NCBI GenBank assembly: GCA_030583805.1
Contig: CP129476.1
Span: 818,497-882,496, forward strand
Reading direction: 5' to 3'
Origin: Patescibacteria group bacterium
GTDB lineage: Bacteria > Patescibacteriota > Patescibacteriia > SG8-24 > DYFX01
Length of the DNA: 64,000 nucleotides
Part shown: positions 42,897 through 51,671 of the stretch, piece after piece
Position numbering within the stretch: position 1 is the stretch's first letter
Layout of the letters: each line of letters opens with the position of its first letter
Made by a program: the position numbers and the translations under genes
The notes under the pieces: model-generated
Told to the model about the DNA's origin: nothing
Database searches by the model: none
Seen by the model: the letters and a program-made list of their open reading frames with translations, nothing else

Positions 42897-43658
42897 TTAT
42901 GTGTTCGAGGACTCGATCTGGACGATCATCCCCATCAAGGAAAGCAGACCTTCCCTTGCGAAGGTGAAGCGCAGACAGTAGTGCATGAGGACGACGATCG
43001 CTCGGCCGAGCGGTTCTTCAAGCGTGGCGAACTTGGAGAAGCCGTAGACGATCAGGCCCATGAACTCTGGCGGAAAAGAGGCGTGCACTTCTTCGTCATT
43101 TCCACCGCTCTCTTTCAGGTCGGCAAAAGAGTAGCAGCCCTGCAGTAGTGACCCACCTTCCTTCGTCGGCACGGCATACGTATACACGTATGCGCGTCCC
43201 TTTCGCGCGGCGCGCCGGTCGAGGTCGTTGCTGCCTTCGCGGGTCAAACCGTGCAGGCATTCTTCGACGAAGCGGGTGCCGACACTGCCGGCGAGGGATT
43301 TCAGCAACCTGTTGCCTCGCCACTCAGACGGATGAGGGCGCCGGCCGGCATCAGGTTCGTAGCACGTCTTGCACACGACCTCGAGCAGGAACCGTGCTAC
43401 CACGGACGGCTCGAGGTTCATGCCCGTCACGTGCGCTTGAATCAGGTCGATGGGCCATCCGTACGACAGCATCGTGATGGCGACGGCGTGCCGGAGCGAA
43501 GCCTGATTAATGCGGGTAACCGATTCGTCTTGGTCATCTACGCCATGGGATGGCGTGCGAGCCGTCCAGCCAGGGACCAGCTCCGTGTCCTTGGTGAGCT
43601 TGGCGAACTCGGCACGAAGGTTCTGAACGTATGCAATGAACGGGGTAGGCGTCTGCAC
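42897..43658 (-). CDS. Hypothetical protein.
   Basis: 253-aa ORF; no recognisable domain. Confidence 0.4.
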   Translation of the reverse strand: MQTPTPFIAYVQNLRAEFAKLTKDTELVPGWTARTPSHGVDDQDESVTRINQASLRHAVAITMLSYGWPIDLIQAHVTGMNLEPSVVARFLLEVVCKTCYEPDAGRRPHPSEWRGNRLLKSLAGSVGTRFVEECLHGLTREGSNDLDRRAARKGRAYVYTYAVPTKEGGSLLQGCYSFADLKESGGNDEEVHASFPPEFMGLIVYGFSKFATLEEPLGRAIVVLMHYCLRFTFAREGLLSLMGMIVQIESSNT

Positions 43659-43746
43659 GATAGCTCTCCTGTGTGGTGCGCGGAAAGCTTAGGAGGACAA
43701 GATGCCTTTGTCAAAGCGCCGGTGGGCGCGATATACTGAAACTGAT

Positions 43747-44364
<618 letters not shown>

Positions 44365-44380
44365 CTGCGAAAAAAAATAA

Positions 44381-44412
44381 GAGAGCCGGCCCGAGGGGGC
44401 TGGCTCTTTGCG
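44381..44412. terminator. Strong bidirectional terminator closing the minus-strand islet.
   Basis: agagccggcccgagggggctggctct, followed by ttgcgtt on the plus strand and by ttatttttttt on the minus strand. Confidence 0.55.
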
Positions 44413-44423
44413 TTCCGGCCGAG

Positions 44424-44657
44424 TTACGGCTGGAACGTCTTGTCGTCGGGTCCGAGTCTGTCGGGCCCGTCGAGCGAGTCGTGGATCATCCGCTCGAAGC
44501 GGTCGGTGTCCTCGATGGTGACGGGGATGGTACCGAGCGGCTGATCGGGATCGATGCCGTCGAAGACGGGATCGGCGCTCGGCTCGGCATCGTTCTCCGC
44601 GAGGTAGCGGAGGATGGCCTGGTCGAGGCTGTCGTCGGGCGGAACCTGATTCTTCAT
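44424..44657 (-). CDS. Islet ORF 9: small, highly acidic protein (77 aa).
   Basis: Asp/Pro-rich; its start overlaps the stop of the upstream gene by 4 nt. Confidence 0.45.
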   Translation of the reverse strand: MKNQVPPDDSLDQAILRYLAENDAEPSADPVFDGIDPDQPLGTIPVTIEDTDRFERMIHDSLDGPDRLGPDDKTFQP

Positions 44658-44908
44658 CGGATGCCTCCTTCTGCGAGGGCGAGGTTGGGCCCGTTCTCGT
44701 GGAACGGGACGTTGGTGGCGGGGATCGCCTTGTTGGTCGCCGGGTCGTGACGGCTCAGCTCAGCGTCCACCGTGCTTCCGGTCTCGTGGAGACCGTACGC
44801 GACGGCGCTGACCATGAGGAACACCATGACCGTGACGAACGTCTGGATGATCCAGGTGTTGAACTCGGTACGGTACCGGAGTCCGGTCTTCTGGGCGGTT
44901 TCGTCCAT
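44654..44908 (-). CDS. Islet ORF 8: single-TM small protein (84 aa).
   Basis: TM IIQTFVTVMVFLMVSAVAYGL. Confidence 0.45.
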   Translation of the reverse strand: MDETAQKTGLRYRTEFNTWIIQTFVTVMVFLMVSAVAYGLHETGSTVDAELSRHDPATNKAIPATNVPFHENGPNLALAEGGIR

Positions 44909-44923
44909 GTACGGTTCTCCGTG

Positions 44924-45355
44924 CTAGCGGTTGTCGCGCGGCTTGCTCGTGTCGTAGGCGGCCAGGAGCAAGCTCCGCCGCTCGTCGACGATGAACAAGA
45001 TCTTGATCTCGAAGTCCTTGAGCATCGTGTTGCCGTTCACGTCCGGGACCTTCTCATCGTTCATGTAGAAGGGTCGGGAGAGACTGAAGTCGCTCGCGAG
45101 CTCGCAGATGATCTCGCTGCGCTTCTCCTCGGGGTGAATGATGCCGCGCTCTTCGGACAGCCTGCGGTAGTTCCCGAACGCCTGCATCGTGACGAGCACC
45201 GTTCCGACATGCGGATTGGTGACGGTCACTGGCACGTTCGTGAGGCCGCAGGCGAGGATGTCGACGCCGTTCAGCATGAGATGGCCAGGCCGCTTGGGTC
45301 TCGGGTTGGGGGTGGAAGCGGGGGCTTCTGTGGCGATGGCACGCAGTGCGGGCAT
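44924..45355 (-). CDS. Islet ORF 7: hypothetical (143 aa).
   Basis: Preceded by intergenic element family 1, copy 1. Confidence 0.45.
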   Translation of the reverse strand: MPALRAIATEAPASTPNPRPKRPGHLMLNGVDILACGLTNVPVTVTNPHVGTVLVTMQAFGNYRRLSEERGIIHPEEKRSEIICELASDFSLSRPFYMNDEKVPDVNGNTMLKDFEIKILFIVDERRSLLLAAYDTSKPRDNR

Positions 45356-45394
45356 GGTGAACTCCGTCTGTGTGGTGGCGGGCGGTGAAGGAGC

Positions 45395-45480
45395 AGCCGT
45401 TTCAGGGCTCCGGCGTCCGGCAGAATTGCGCGGGCACCAGAGGCTGAAGTGGACACGATGTCCACCCAGAGGAAAGAACG
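45395..45480 (-). repeat. Conserved intergenic element family 1, copy 1 (contains the perfect palindrome GTGGACATCGTGTCCAC).
   Basis: About 85% identical to 46410-46498; lies between the stop of ORF 6 and the start of ORF 7. Confidence 0.6.
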
Positions 45481-45497
45481 AGGTGCGGCCGCGAACG

Positions 45498-46382
45498 TCA
45501 GGCGACGTTGGCCATCAGGTCGCGGGCGGCTTCGAGGTCGCAGGGATCCGCCATGGCCGCGGCCAAGGCGACGTGATCGGGGTTCTCGGGGTCGAGACCC
45601 TCGATCATCATGAACGCGAGGAGATCCGGATCGATCTTGGGCTCCTCGGCGGTGGCGTCCGCAACCTCGTGGGCGGCGTCGGTGTCGGCGACCGTCTCGG
45701 GCTCCGCAGCCTGGGGCGGGGTTTCCGTCTCGATGTCGTTCGCCGCTTGGGTCTGCATCACGTCCCGCGCGAGCGCCGCGAGCGGCGTCATCTTGGCACG
45801 AGCCTTCGCGCGTTTGTCGAGCTCGATCACGACCTTCTCGGCGAGCGCCATCATCGCATCGAGCTTGTCGAGCTGACCCTGGTGGGCCCGCTCGGCGCGC
45901 TCGATCTGCAGCGTATGCCGGATCTTGCCGGCCTCACGCTTGTACTGCTCGGCCAGCACCGTCGGATAGTACGCGGCCCAGAGTTCGAGGTGCGTCGCCC
46001 GGCGCTCCAAGTTGGAGGACGTGAGCGCGGCGATCTCGGACTGGAACTCCGCGGCCTTCCGCAGCTTCTTCATCGTACGCGTGTACGACAGCTGGCGCTC
46101 CAGACGCGCGATCTCCTGGTCGGTGCGCAGGGCGCACTCCCAGTTGTCGCGCATGCGGCGCTTGAGCTTGGCCGTCTCGGCGTCGCACGGCGGCTTTGCG
46201 TAGAACGCATCGAGCTGCGTCTTCATGCGCGCGATCTGCACCGGCGCGGTCTCGATCTCCAACGTGTAGACGGCGAGCGTCTTCAGGTCTTCGCCGAGCT
46301 TCATGCCGGTCTTGACGTCGCTGAGAACGAACTCGTCGATCTGGCGGCACAGGTTGCGGAAACGGTTCAGGGTGTTCGTCAC
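45498..46382 (-). CDS. Islet ORF 6: coiled-coil protein with an acidic C-terminal region (294 aa, GTG start).
   Basis: Heptad-rich (LERQLSYTRTMKKLRKAAEF ...); RBS gaggtg. Confidence 0.5.
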   Translation of the reverse strand: MTNTLNRFRNLCRQIDEFVLSDVKTGMKLGEDLKTLAVYTLEIETAPVQIARMKTQLDAFYAKPPCDAETAKLKRRMRDNWECALRTDQEIARLERQLSYTRTMKKLRKAAEFQSEIAALTSSNLERRATHLELWAAYYPTVLAEQYKREAGKIRHTLQIERAERAHQGQLDKLDAMMALAEKVVIELDKRAKARAKMTPLAALARDVMQTQAANDIETETPPQAAEPETVADTDAAHEVADATAEEPKIDPDLLAFMMIEGLDPENPDHVALAAAMADPCDLEAARDLMANVA

Positions 46383-46409
46383 GGTGCACCTCGCTTGGTC
46401 AATGAACGT

Positions 46410-46498
46410 TGCGGTTCAGGGCTTCGGCGTCCGGCGGTATTGCGCGGGCGTCGGAGGCTGAAGAGGACACGATGTCCTCCCAGAGGGACGAAGAAAGG
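46410..46498 (-). repeat. Conserved intergenic element family 1, copy 2 (palindrome GAGGACATCGTGTCCTC).
   Basis: Same architecture as copy 1; the outermost palindrome positions differ in both arms so that the palindrome stays perfect. Confidence 0.6.
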
Positions 46499-46504
46499 AG
46501 CGGC

Positions 46505-47905
46505 TCAGCTGCGCGTGAGCGTCTGTGCGACGGGCGTGCCCGTGATGCTGTGAGCGTTGTAATACCACGTTCCGTCGTTGCTCCAAAGCATACCGTAGCC
46601 GAGCGCGCCTCCCGTGAGGACGTTCGCCAGCGTGGTGTCCACGCCGCTTCCGGCCAGGACGCCTTCCGCGAAGCCGGCGACGTCGCGTGCCAGCGTGGTC
46701 GTTAGCGTCTCACCGCTTCCGTCAGCGCCGCTGACAGTGAGTCGAAGCTCGAGGCTGACGGTCGTGCCGGCGGCGATAATGATCGGCTGGTCGAACACTA
46801 CTCCGGCGCAGACCTCCGAGGTGCTGGCGCCAAAGCCGCAGGTCTGCCCGGCATACCCCAGATAGGAGGTTCCGGCAAGATCGCCGCCCATGCCGAGCTC
46901 ACGAATCCTCGGGGCTTCGACCGTGATGGAAGGATTCGTGTTCACATGGAACGAGAGCTTCTTCACGTGGATGTCCGCACCGGTGTCGGCAGTGATCGCG
47001 ACGCGCGCAACGACTTGCGTGCCATTGGACAGCACGTTCGTCGGCAGCGGCAGCACGGAAATGACGGGCGTCGTCATCGGGACGGACGGACTGGTCGGCT
47101 CGTTGGCCACCAGGTTCGTGAACGGCCCGACAATGCCCGTGTTCGGATGGATATCCTCTACGAGCACCGGCGTTTCGTCGTCGACGCGAACCATGTCACC
47201 CAGCATCGGCGAACCGAGTTGGATCTGGATCTCCGTGCCGTCGAGCGCGACGTTGTTCGCCGTATCTAGGTAGACGCACAACTGCGTCGGCCGATGTGCT
47301 TCGAGGAGGATGATGTCGACGAGATCGATCGGCTGATACGTATCATTGCCTGTTGCATCAACGTCGCGCGGACCGGCCACGACGTTGATCCCGTACAACA
47401 CCTTTATGTCGGTGAAGTTCGGGCGGAGCGTCGCGGCGGACGTGTCGACGAGGCCGCCGGCGGCCGTGTTCTCGCCGATGGCGGCGATAAACATCCGCAG
47501 GCGGCGTACTTCGACATCGACGTTTGCCACGGCGGTGAAGCAGAACACGGGGATGTCCTGCGCGCCGACGGAGCGCTCGTACTGGAACCCGACGTTGAGC
47601 GCCATGTCCACGCGAGCGCGTTCGACCGGCGGACTTTCGGGATCCGGCGGCTCGACCACGACGATGTTGTCGCCGCAGTCCACGGGATCGTCACCTTCGA
47701 CGGTGACGCAGCCGGTCGCGAGCTTCACGATGGCGATCGCGAGGATGTAGAACGGGAGCCCGCGAAGGCTCCACTTCAGGAGCGTGATCTCACGGGGGTT
47801 GGAGCAGACGTTCTTCATTCCGGTCTCCTTGTTGTACGGTACGGCGGTTTTTGTCTGACGATGCGGTCGTTTCCGGCATCGGGCCCCGAAACATTCGGGA
47901 GCCAA
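46505..47905 (-). CDS. Islet ORF 5: large Thr/Val/Gly-rich lipoprotein (466 aa).
   Basis: Lipobox LATGC after an N-terminal TM/signal; beta-rich repetitive composition. Confidence 0.55.
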   Translation of the reverse strand: MAPECFGARCRKRPHRQTKTAVPYNKETGMKNVCSNPREITLLKWSLRGLPFYILAIAIVKLATGCVTVEGDDPVDCGDNIVVVEPPDPESPPVERARVDMALNVGFQYERSVGAQDIPVFCFTAVANVDVEVRRLRMFIAAIGENTAAGGLVDTSAATLRPNFTDIKVLYGINVVAGPRDVDATGNDTYQPIDLVDIILLEAHRPTQLCVYLDTANNVALDGTEIQIQLGSPMLGDMVRVDDETPVLVEDIHPNTGIVGPFTNLVANEPTSPSVPMTTPVISVLPLPTNVLSNGTQVVARVAITADTGADIHVKKLSFHVNTNPSITVEAPRIRELGMGGDLAGTSYLGYAGQTCGFGASTSEVCAGVVFDQPIIIAAGTTVSLELRLTVSGADGSGETLTTTLARDVAGFAEGVLAGSGVDTTLANVLTGGALGYGMLWSNDGTWYYNAHSITGTPVAQTLTRS

Positions 47906-47962
47906 TTGCGGAAGGGGAGGTCGTCACGCTCCCCGAGACTGAGATGAAGCGCGAACGCTTCA

Positions 47963-48130
47963 GACGACGGCGGCACCGACGCTGATCGCCAAGAGGGCGA
48001 TCAAGAGCAGGACAGCGAGCACTGCGCCGTGGCCGAAGGGCCAGTTGTACGCAGCCGAGTAGCGGCTGCAGTCCTCGTACCAGGCGGTAGCCCGGATCTT
48101 CTCGGTTGAGGCGGTGATCATCTTCATCAC
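47963..48130 (-). CDS. Islet ORF 4: micro-protein with a C-terminal TM (55 aa).
   Basis: MKMITASTEKIRATAWYEDCSRYSAAYNWPFGHGAVLAVLLLIALLAISVGAAVV; its start overlaps the ORF 3 stop. Confidence 0.35.
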
Positions 48131-48132
48131 GA

Positions 48133-48285
48133 GGCCTCGTTGAAGGTGCGGATGAACTCTTCGGCGTTCTCGAGCTCCTCCTCGTCGATGAGGAAGGCGC
48201 CGTCGATGCCGCGGAGGTCGTGCGGGGCGATCTCGATGATGATCTCGATCGAAGGACCGTATTCGGTCTGGTCGTGCATGGCGTA
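48133..48285 (-). CDS. Islet ORF 3: acidic micro-protein (50 aa).
   Basis: MHDQTEYGPSIEIIIEIAPHDLRGIDGAFLIDEEELENAEEFIRTFNEAS; preceded by family-2 element copy A. Confidence 0.35.
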
Positions 48286-48299
48286 GCTCCTGGTTGGTG

Positions 48300-48406
48300 G
48301 TTGTTGTGTCGATCTGTCCGACGCTCCTGTCGCACCATGCGGCAGAAGGTCCGGATGAATCGCCCCGCGGTTGCCCGCGGGGGATGAAGCGGATGGAGCG
48401 GAAGGA
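48300..48406 (-). repeat. Conserved leader element family 2, copy A.
   Basis: cccccgcgg-gcaa-ccgcgggg hairpin, then cgattcat ... ccttct ... cgcatggtgcga ... gatcgac ... cacaac, then ATG. Confidence 0.5.
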
Positions 48407-48898
48407 TCAGCGCTGGTTGCGGAGCTGCTCGCGGATCTCGCCGTCGTAGGGGACGAGGCCGCGGCCGCGCACGAGGACGGTGACGCACGTCTTGCGATCG
48501 GGCAGCTTGCTCCGATAGCGCTGCGCGTAGTTCTCGCACGAGCGCGGGCCGTTGGGCGGCTTGCGCTCGTTGGGCGTCAGGCTGGCGAGCGTCTCGGCGA
48601 CCTTCAGGCACAACGCGTCCTTGAGGTCCTCCTCGTCCGGCACGTACGGCTCGCTCTCGTCGATGATCTGATCGACCGTTTTGAAGACCGAGGTCTTCGC
48701 GCGAAGGTCGTTGTTGCCGTGATCGAGCTCGGCGGCGTCGTAGAAGTGATGGAACGAGGGCGCGTACCGGCTGACGAAGGAACCCTTCAGGTTCTCGGCG
48801 CGCAGGCGCCGGTCGTCCATCTCGTCGAGCGGCTTCGCGTTGAGCTTGGTCAGCAACTCCATGCCGGTCTTGGTCTCGGGCTTCGAGTAGTTGGACAT
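48407..48898 (-). CDS. Islet ORF 2: hypothetical (163 aa).
   Basis: Preceded by family-2 element copy B. Confidence 0.45.
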   Translation of the reverse strand: MSNYSKPETKTGMELLTKLNAKPLDEMDDRRLRAENLKGSFVSRYAPSFHHFYDAAELDHGNNDLRAKTSVFKTVDQIIDESEPYVPDEEDLKDALCLKVAETLASLTPNERKPPNGPRSCENYAQRYRSKLPDRKTCVTVLVRGRGLVPYDGEIREQLRNQR

Positions 48899-48917
48899 GT
48901 CAGGCCTCCTGCGGTGC

Positions 48918-49030
48918 GGGGTTGTGCGGTCGATCCATTCCGGCTCTCCTCATCGCACATGCGTGAGAAGGCCCAGAGTGATCGCCCCGCGGAAGAAGTT
49001 CCGCGGGGGAGGTGAGGAAGTGGGATGCGC
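48918..49030 (-). repeat. Conserved leader element family 2, copy B.
   Basis: cccccgcgg-aacttctt-ccgcgggg hairpin, then cgatcact ... ccttct ... cgcatgtgcga ... gatcgac ... cacaac, then ATG. Confidence 0.5.
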
Positions 49031-49314
49031 TAGGCGGCGGCGAGCCAGGGGTCGTCGGCGCAGCCGAGGAAGATCGAGATGTCGTCGGTCAGCTGGGCGC
49101 TGAGGTAGCCGCCGTGCTGCTTGAGGATCACCTGAAGATCCTCGTCGGCGCCCTCGATGAGGGCTTCGGCGGCGATCTCTTCGATGACGTCATGGGTGCG
49201 CGGCGAGCACTCCTCGAACGGATCGATCTCCGCGAGGAAGTTGTAGACGAGGCTGGCAAAGGGAAGGTGCGCGTGTGCTTTCATGGTCAGCTCCGGTGTG
49301 CAGGTGGACAACAC
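49030..49314 (-). CDS. Islet ORF 1: small acidic protein (94 aa).
   Basis: First gene downstream of the consensus promoter. Confidence 0.45.
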   Translation of the reverse strand: MLSTCTPELTMKAHAHLPFASLVYNFLAEIDPFEECSPRTHDVIEEIAAEALIEGADEDLQVILKQHGGYLSAQLTDDISIFLGCADDPWLAAA

Positions 49315-49345
49315 TTCTCAGTGGCGAACAGGATTGTTCGATGAA

Positions 49346-49385
49346 CCGAATATAACACAAAAACACGCTTTTGTCAATGGTTTCC
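49346..49385 (-). promoter_or_regulatory. Consensus sigma70 promoter driving the islet.
   Basis: Minus sense: TTGACA, aaagcgtgtttttgtgt (17 nt), TATATT. Confidence 0.6.
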
Positions 49386-49519
49386 GACAGAATAAATGCG
49401 GTAAAATAAGGCTAGAAACTGAGTGCTAGCCTTAAAAACGTCAATAAAACATGAAACATATTGTGAAACAGCAGGAGCATTTTCTTGACAGGTTTTATGC
49501 CACGTGGTAGTGTGCGACG

Positions 49520-49748
49520 TTGCTTGAGCACCGCGCTCGACATCCCTGTTACAGCCCGACCGTTTTCGGACCCATTCGCATCTGGTCTCTAGAAACTCGC
49601 GCTCACGACAAGCATGGAGGTATCTCATAGGGTACTTCGGGCTCCGGCTCGAACGCTTCTATAAGACACCTTCTTGAGCGCGATTTTCTGCAGACCACTC
49701 CGAAAACAATGGAGAAGAAAAAGACCCCGCACTGCGGGGTCTTTTGTT
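49520..49748 (+). ncRNA. Candidate ~225-nt non-coding transcript (putative promoter at 49485-49518, terminator at 49717-49748).
   Basis: TTGACA, 17 nt, TAGTGT; no ORF; long-range pairing of gttttcgga (49567) with tccgaaaac (49697); terminator gaccccgcactgcggggtc followed by ttttgtttc. Confidence 0.2.
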
Positions 49749-49750
49749 TC
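49717..49750. terminator. Bidirectional terminator (VanW gene / candidate sRNA).
   Basis: aaaaagaccccgcactgcggggtcttttgttt. Confidence 0.55.
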
Positions 49751-49751
49751 G

Positions 49752-51671
49752 TTATGGCGTCGGGGGCGTGTTCGTTGCGGAGGGAAGCGGCGCAAGTTCC
49801 TTGATAGACCCGTCGCTGCCGAGCACGATGCGCGGCGCGCCTGTCTTGCCGACGAGGCACTGCTGCTGCCAAGGCTTGTAGACGCTGCGGAAGTCCTGTG
49901 CCTTCACCGTGCCGTCCGGATACGTGATCGAATAGGTGAAGTTCGTCGTTGCTCCGGCGTGCGGGGATTCGAAACATTTTTTCACGCCTTCGGCCAGCTC
50001 GGATGTTTCGATCAGCTTCGGCTCGGGCGGCGGCGTGATGTTCCAGGTTTTGATCGGGCCCTGCTTCTGCACGCGACCATCACGCGTTCCCCAGAACTCG
50101 AACCGCGCAATGTCGCCGATGATCTTCGTGATCAAGACGGCGTGCGACTGCGTGTCGTTGATGAATTTGAAATCCGGTGCCGGGTCGTACAGCGTGGCGT
50201 CGGTGCCGGCCGGTTCGTAGTAGCGCACGCGATACGAATGGTTCTGCCGTTGCGTGATCGGAAGTCCGGCGCCCATCGTGGCGCGGAACGTCGTCGTGCC
50301 GATCTGGCAGAGACCGCCGCCATATTCCGGAACGGTGCGGTTGCCCTTGATGACGAGTTCGGGCACGTAGCCGCCGGAAGCGTCGAACGGCTTCAAGTAG
50401 TCGATGAGACCGATCTCTTCTCCCGGCTTGATGATGATGCCGTTCAGGCGCGCGGCGCCGTTCGCGATGTTGATGCGGCGATTCTTCGGGCTGCCGGAAA
50501 AATTCGACGTGCCGTAGCCGAGCAGTTCCGTGATGCCGAGCTCGACGGCAATCGCGTCGGAAGCCGGAGCGGCAACGGTCGTAACGGCGATCGGAAACAC
50601 CCCGTTCTCCGACGTGTCGAACAGCTCATCGAGGCGGGCCAGACTTGTTTCCTGATCGACTGTTTTACCGAGCGAGCCGCCTTGAAAATCTTTCGCGCGG
50701 CCGTCTTCGCCGATCGTGAACCGCGTCGGTTTCGGTTCGCTCTCGATCTCTTTTGCGGCGATGGCAAGGAGCGGTTCGATGACGCTGCGTTTCAAGGTCA
50801 GGCCGATCGAACCATCTTTTTTCTTCAATAAAACAAGGGCTTTTGCGATCTCCTCTTCCGACAACGACCAGGTAAGATCGTCGTAGGCCAAGCTTGCCTC
50901 GCCGCGCGCAAGCACCTGCTTCGCGCGGTCGACGAACGCTTCGGCTTCCGCCAACGTGATGTCGGGCGCTTTCGTCGTCGCCTGCAAATCGATCGCCGAG
51001 CCTTGCCAGCGCGCCAAGCCGGAAGCGGCGTGGTCGATGGCGCTGCCGTAATCGAACGTGACGCCCGTGGAATCGGGAGAAACGAGGATGCGCCAGTCGG
51101 GGCGCGTGGCGCCGCTGGAAGAAGCGTTGTTCACGGGAACGGAAACGCGTTCGATGGTGAACGCGGCGTCGCGCGCGGGCTGCTCAAGCTCGCCGAAGCG
51201 AAGCGTAAGCAACGCCTGAAGCGCGTCCTTGTCGACGACGAGTTGCACGGGTTGCTGCACGTCGGCGAAAAGCGCGCGCATGTTGGCGGCAATCAACTCG
51301 GCTTTTCCAGCCTCGTGTCCGAAGGCGAAGGCTGTTTCCACCATGCCGTCCAGGTCGTACGTTACGGGCGATTGCGTCGGCGAAGCGGCGCTCACGTCGT
51401 TCGCGCGCACGGTCAGCGAGCGGTCCTGGTAGCGGAACTGCACGCCGGCGACGTTCAGCGCGCGCAACGCGTTTTCCAAACGTTCCTTCGCTTCCGATGG
51501 CGTGAGACCGCCGACGTCGATGCCGCCGATCGTGACGTTCGGCAAGATGCGGCCGTCCGCGCGCACGACTTGTACGGCGATAAGACCCGAAACAAGCAGC
51601 AGACAAAAAACGCCTGCAAGCACCAGGTGTCTGGGAGAACTCGGCAGGAGTTTTTTGAGGCGGTCGAACAT
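49752..51671 (-). CDS. VanW-family protein (N-terminal TM, peptidoglycan-associated).
   Basis: GGGLCQIGTTTFRATMGAGL, the VanW signature. Confidence 0.8.
   Translation of the reverse strand: MFDRLKKLLPSSPRHLVLAGVFCLLLVSGLIAVQVVRADGRILPNVTIGGIDVGGLTPSEAKERLENALRALNVAGVQFRYQDRSLTVRANDVSAASPTQSPVTYDLDGMVETAFAFGHEAGKAELIAANMRALFADVQQPVQLVVDKDALQALLTLRFGELEQPARDAAFTIERVSVPVNNASSSGATRPDWRILVSPDSTGVTFDYGSAIDHAASGLARWQGSAIDLQATTKAPDITLAEAEAFVDRAKQVLARGEASLAYDDLTWSLSEEEIAKALVLLKKKDGSIGLTLKRSVIEPLLAIAAKEIESEPKPTRFTIGEDGRAKDFQGGSLGKTVDQETSLARLDELFDTSENGVFPIAVTTVAAPASDAIAVELGITELLGYGTSNFSGSPKNRRINIANGAARLNGIIIKPGEEIGLIDYLKPFDASGGYVPELVIKGNRTVPEYGGGLCQIGTTTFRATMGAGLPITQRQNHSYRVRYYEPAGTDATLYDPAPDFKFINDTQSHAVLITKIIGDIARFEFWGTRDGRVQKQGPIKTWNITPPPEPKLIETSELAEGVKKCFESPHAGATTNFTYSITYPDGTVKAQDFRSVYKPWQQQCLVGKTGAPRIVLGSDGSIKELAPLPSATNTPPTP

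Follow-up and report, generated by a model that had tools for sequence, protein, structure and literature searches.

The window, a 64,000-nucleotide stretch of a closed Patescibacteria MAG, contains an islet of nine ORFs (locus tags QY323_04580-04615), with a near-consensus promoter at one end and an intrinsic terminator at the other. All nine ORFs, like every islet feature described below, lie on the minus strand. The promoter (49349..49377) consists of TTGACA and TATATT hexamers separated by 17 nucleotides, carries a TG extension, and matches the consensus at 11 of 12 positions. No other promoter-like match was found on the minus strand within 43000-51000. Both hexamers are conserved in the related lineages L007, L005 and L097, while the sequence of the spacer between them varies. 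In the terminator (44381..44412), convergent with clpP, a GC-rich stem of 10 bp precedes a U8 tract. The initial annotation of a co-directional nine-gene islet driven by one strong promoter and closed by a strong terminator was thus confirmed.

The genes are arranged in six modules, [84 aa] [163] [50+55] [437] [294] [143+84+77], each of which is tight internally. Within the last of these, 15 nt separate the first two genes (w143 and w84), and the stop and start codons of w84 and w77 overlap (ATGA); a second overlap (TGATG) joins the genes for the 50- and 55-aa proteins (w50/w56), so that the translational coupling proposed earlier is visible at two junctions. A GGAG-type Shine-Dalgarno sequence precedes each of the nine ORFs by 5-10 nt, and GC3 (0.82-0.95) far exceeds GC2 (0.31-0.50), a clear coding signature. 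Three of the starts originally assumed are probably too early. For gene 1 (49030..49284; GC3 0.88), an acidic 84-aa protein was called, with the alternative GTG start at 49314 yielding 94 aa (ORF 49030-49314). Gene 4 probably encodes 55 aa (47960..48127) instead of the 56 aa of the longer ORF (47960-48130). The lipoprotein, gene 5 (46505..47818), is called by both NCBI and Logan from the ATG at 47818, the Met at which ortholog alignments begin, which gives 437 aa instead of the 466 aa of the ORF 46505-47905.

Several of the products are small and either acidic or membrane-associated, as initially annotated. The gene 1 protein and the 50- and 77-aa proteins have computed pI values of 4.05-4.15, and the 55-aa and 84-aa membrane proteins each contain a single strong hydrophobic segment. 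Gene 1 (pI 4.15) is accessory: its sole homolog is L009 f99 (27% identity, E 4e-8), and it is absent from L007. Gene 2 (48407..48898) encodes a 163-aa charged cytoplasmic protein with orthologs in L007, L009, L010 and L097, for which neither a family nor a PDB match was found. Gene 3 (48127..48279) encodes the 50-aa acidic protein A1 (pI 4.05; orthologs a51, b43 and d61), always positioned directly upstream of the gene for T1. T1, the 55-aa tail-anchored product of gene 4, has a C-terminal hydrophobic segment (KD 2.97) and the motif WY(E/R)(D/E)CSRYS; it is 80% identical to L007 a55, with further homologs in L005, L010, L011 and L012. Gene 6 (45498..46382) specifies CC, the coiled-coil core protein (294 aa); it contains an acidic linker, and the motif DxDxxAxxxxEGLxxxxxxDxxxAR is conserved at its C-terminal end. 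The last module comprises the 143-aa protein X (gene 7, 44924..45355; orthologs c143 at 83%, a152 at 41%, and L095-143), the 84-aa bitopic membrane protein T2 (gene 8, 44654..44908; TM segment from approximately residue 19; orthologs in L007, L089, L005, L095 and L097), and the 77-aa acidic protein A2 (gene 9, 44424..44657; pI 4.05), orthologs of which are present in related islets.

The putative lipoprotein consists of a signal peptide with an N-terminal h-region and a conserved Cys, an acidic, Pro-containing linker, domain A, and a C-terminal domain for which modelling gives a beta-sandwich of cohesin- or adhesin-like type. With cohesin and CBM3 modules, and with the Ig-like modules of Gram-positive pilins or adhesins, it shares no more than the fold (4-16% identity); searches of Pfam and of PDB sequences gave no match, and it has no sortase motif or isopeptide signature. 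Putative beta-sandwich lipoproteins have been gained, lost, duplicated and reordered between lineages, and the islets of L010, L091 and L093 have none, so the lipoprotein is accessory and the core function cannot lie with it.

Spacers of 120-150 nt stand between the modules, and each of them folds into two adjacent hairpins. Two spacers belong to family F1 (48899..49029, folding z -3.1; 48280..48406, z -4.2), in which a CCCCGCGG stem is followed by a CUCYGG..CCGGA hairpin. In an alignment of six F1 copies from four lineages, 6 of the 22 pairs show compensatory changes. A third type (47819..47959), with a GGGGAG stem followed by a UUCCG..CGGAA hairpin, is nearly identical in L007 (9862-10000). 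The two family F2 spacers (46383..46504 and 45356..45497; 77 and 78.5 bits, respectively, with the covariance model) have the order HP1, CTTCAGCC, HP2, GCCCTGAA. In HP2 of F2, five pairs show compensatory changes, and 92.8% of cells are paired versus 86% in shuffles (0/500). Searched against 1.8 Mb of sequence, the F2 model matched islets only, among them L095 and L097, two loci that had been held out. The two families of structured intergenic elements initially reported are both present as repeats, D5 in F1 (48336-48370/48958-48992, 80% identical) and D2 in F2 (45398-45478/46412-46492, 86% identical). Folding z-scores across the spacers are modest (-0.6 to -4.2), no strand preference of folding was seen, and counts of G.U versus C.A did not establish that the sense RNA is where the structure acts.

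None of the nine proteins had a significant match in Pfam, NCBIfam, PHROGs, PADLOC or PDB sequences, in agreement with the lack of recognisable families in the initial annotation, and these searches placed none of them in a housekeeping family or one of annotated function. A profile of CC matched only 18 clusters among 1.84 billion (1.84e9) representatives, and all copies looked up were inside this locus. The islet is confined to one small clade of ultra-small Patescibacteria (ABY1-type), with no islet homologs detected outside it. In relatives the order is HSP20-vanW-ncRNA-[islet]-clpP-DHH, an arrangement shared by approximately ten related lineages (L007, L003-6, L009-L012, L089, L091, L093, L095 and L097). 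The recurring core across lineages comprises an acidic micro-protein with a tail-anchored membrane protein, the coiled-coil protein, and a bitopic membrane protein with an acidic protein. Distant ABY1-type relatives retain the synteny but lack the islet and have other content in the vanW-clpP gap.

The islet had also been proposed to be a mobile or phage-derived cassette inserted between housekeeping genes. While the ORFan nature of all products, including small acidic proteins and micro-ORFs, and the differing gap content in distant relatives are compatible with such an insertion, the islet occupies the same position in approximately ten lineages and the flanking genes have co-diverged with it. 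Its GC and GC3 match those of the flanking genes (GC3 0.82-0.95 versus 0.72-0.88 in the flanks); no integrase, transposase, att repeats or adjacent tRNA was found nearby; and phage, plasmid and IMG/VR collections gave no match by DNA, protein or pattern, with PHROGs matches below significance. A mobile or phage origin is therefore largely refuted and, of all explanations considered, the one we deem least credible. The gap between the housekeeping genes is indeed variable among distant relatives, but within its clade the islet is native and old; the position of the operon is fixed between the vanW-linked ncRNA gene and clpP, and a mobile nature is not supported.

The islet has diverged rapidly. 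VanW is 84% identical to its counterpart in L007, while islet proteins are 41-53% identical. Compared to L089, dN/dS is 0.40-1.39 for islet genes and 0.02-0.045 for clpP and DHH, and constraint on islet proteins is 10-50 times weaker than on the housekeeping genes that flank them. Values for w143 (0.40) and w294 fall within 0.4-0.6, while those for w84 (T2, 0.98) and w77 (A2, 1.39) lie near 1 or above, which could reflect weak constraint instead of selection. Together with the failure to find homologs outside the clade, the latter two values would fit decaying or weakly constrained filler, i.e., chance ORFs in a GC-rich spacer lacking real function. However, the frames are intact and retain similar lengths and conserved motifs across lineages down to 25-45% identity, GC3 far exceeds GC2 in every ORF, every start has a Shine-Dalgarno sequence, the promoter is conserved, and w143 and w294 have dN/dS values of 0.4-0.6, making this explanation very improbable.

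The fastest-evolving islet genes encode the cytoplasmic and membrane core proteins, whereas conservation of the a596/c592 lipoprotein type equals that of the housekeeping flanks (81% DNA identity), a pattern for which a conflict system is no worse a fit than an adhesin locus. In such an anti-phage defence, abortive infection or toxin-immunity system, the membrane proteins would be effectors, the acidic micro-proteins neutralisers, the coiled-coil protein a sensor or scaffold, and the lipoproteins accessory. The overlapping codons of the acidic/membrane gene pairs, the extreme turnover with dN/dS of approximately 1 in exactly the genes of such a pair, the variable gene content in a fixed hotspot, and the persistence of the core without any lipoprotein are all consistent with this possibility. 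On the other hand, PADLOC, Pfam and NCBIfam searches were empty, enzyme or nucleotide-binding domains are absent, the islet is restricted to a single locus in a single clade, whereas transfer from genome to genome is usual for defence systems, and a consensus promoter of constitutive type together with high GC3 points to abundant structural products. We therefore regard a conflict system as unlikely, though the strongest of the alternatives; of the undescribed surface or defence system suggested initially, the surface option fits best, while positive evidence for defence is lacking given the empty PADLOC search.

Comparison between relatives indicates that cassette insertions and deletions end exactly at F2 elements or just past the signal peptide and lipobox. 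The L089 islet equals that of the window plus one extra lipoprotein cassette, placed exactly between two F2 copies (at the site of spacer 45356..45497). In L091 the mature lipoprotein body is missing, with a signal-peptide stub and the spacer present between flanks that are approximately 90% identical, and homology between the window and L007 ends approximately 60 codons into the lipoprotein. The conserved unit comprises the 3' tail, the spacer with its twin hairpin, the leader and the signal peptide, and the operon looks like one that swaps surface-lipoprotein genes at repeated hairpin spacers. These exchanges could also be those of a new integron-like, site-specific cassette array, with the F2 twin hairpins acting as folded-DNA recombination sites for a recombinase encoded elsewhere. 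Such an array would account for the promoterless co-directional cassettes behind a single promoter, the inverse-complementary conserved cores (CTSTGRGG/CCTTCAG) of each hairpin on stems of variable sequence and length, the indel breakpoints and chimeric spacers at the conserved cores CTTCAGCC and GCCCTGAA, and the lack of strand preference in the structure. Yet no integrase was found in the 20-kb flanks, and an NCBIfam tyrosine DNA invertase match was weak (22 bits versus a cutoff of 222) and fell on residues unconserved in orthologs. Moreover, the cores are unlike the attC cores R''/R' (RYYYAAC/GTTRRRY), module order is mostly kept across lineages, and every event seen is accounted for by homologous recombination of the ordinary kind, acting on 60-80-nt repeats that are 85-90% identical. 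Accordingly, we consider a site-specific array improbable.

Fast evolution combined with lipoprotein swapping at hairpin spacers gives the islet the look of a native, diversifying cell-surface module instead of a phage or mobile insert. Our leading interpretation, to which we assign a probability of roughly 0.45, is that the islet is a native, lineage-specific and predicted strongly expressed envelope module displaying exchangeable lipoproteins. The envelope location is suggested by the signal peptide and conserved Cys and by the TM segments of the two small membrane proteins. In this module, the products would form a membrane-anchored assembly in which the two small membrane proteins hold the cytoplasmic coiled-coil protein and its acidic partners, and which works with, or displays, the exchangeable surface lipoproteins; the cohesin- or adhesin-like domains of these may bind a partner outside the cell, for example a host cell, a phage or a neighbouring cell. 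As the islet proteins have no relative of known function, the proposed envelope-complex and binding roles are drawn from localisation signals and a generic fold. The twin hairpins may serve as processing or stability signals on the polycistronic RNA, resembling RNase III sites or protective 3' stem-loops, through which the modules might be produced in differing amounts. The hairpin spacers, being repeated DNA, could double as crossover points that shuffle cassettes.

Parts of this arrangement resemble known systems. Intercistronic RNase III sites are carried by phage T7 mRNAs, protective intercistronic stem-loops are found in the Rhodobacter puf operon, and with intercistronic hairpins the upstream segment can end up with a stable hairpin at its 3' end. 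The islet spacers likewise contain imperfect hairpins of approximately 20 bp with internal loops between cistrons of one long predicted transcript, but here the candidate cleavage sites, proposed by analogy, form a fixed pair (HP1 and HP2), and family F2 is confined to this operon. Integron cassette arrays and CALINs share with the islet co-directional promoterless ORFan cassettes behind one promoter, after each cassette an imperfect palindrome whose sequence varies but whose inverse cores are conserved, and cassette content that differs between relatives with boundaries at the palindromic elements. In contrast to these arrays, the islet lacks IntI, its cores are unrelated to attC R''/R', its module order is largely conserved, and its elements are twin hairpins that also resemble RNA signals.

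Variable surface-lipoprotein loci are represented by vsp, vlp and vsa of Mycoplasma. As in those loci, the host is a small-genome, host-dependent monoderm, the lipoprotein genes have a common leader, signal peptide and lipobox joined to unrelated mature regions, and their number and type vary between close relatives. The islet differs in having no sequence homology to these loci and no site-specific recombinase, invertible promoter, or homopolymer or tandem-repeat switch, in that its variation is seen between species, and in that its lipoproteins belong to an operon whose conserved core consists of other kinds of protein. In the Staphylococcus aureus nuSa-alpha lpl tandem lipoprotein cluster, variable parts are reported to be reshuffled by homologous recombination at short conserved segments (Tsuru & Kobayashi 2008, PMC2568036). 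By contrast, the genes of the islet do not form a tandem series of paralogs from one family, Pfam detected no DUF576 (lpl) domain in their products, and the crossover segments are structured intergenic elements instead of a central coding region. The likeness to the lpl cluster lies in the conserved unit itself, which in the islet extends from the 3' tail through the spacer and leader to the signal peptide.

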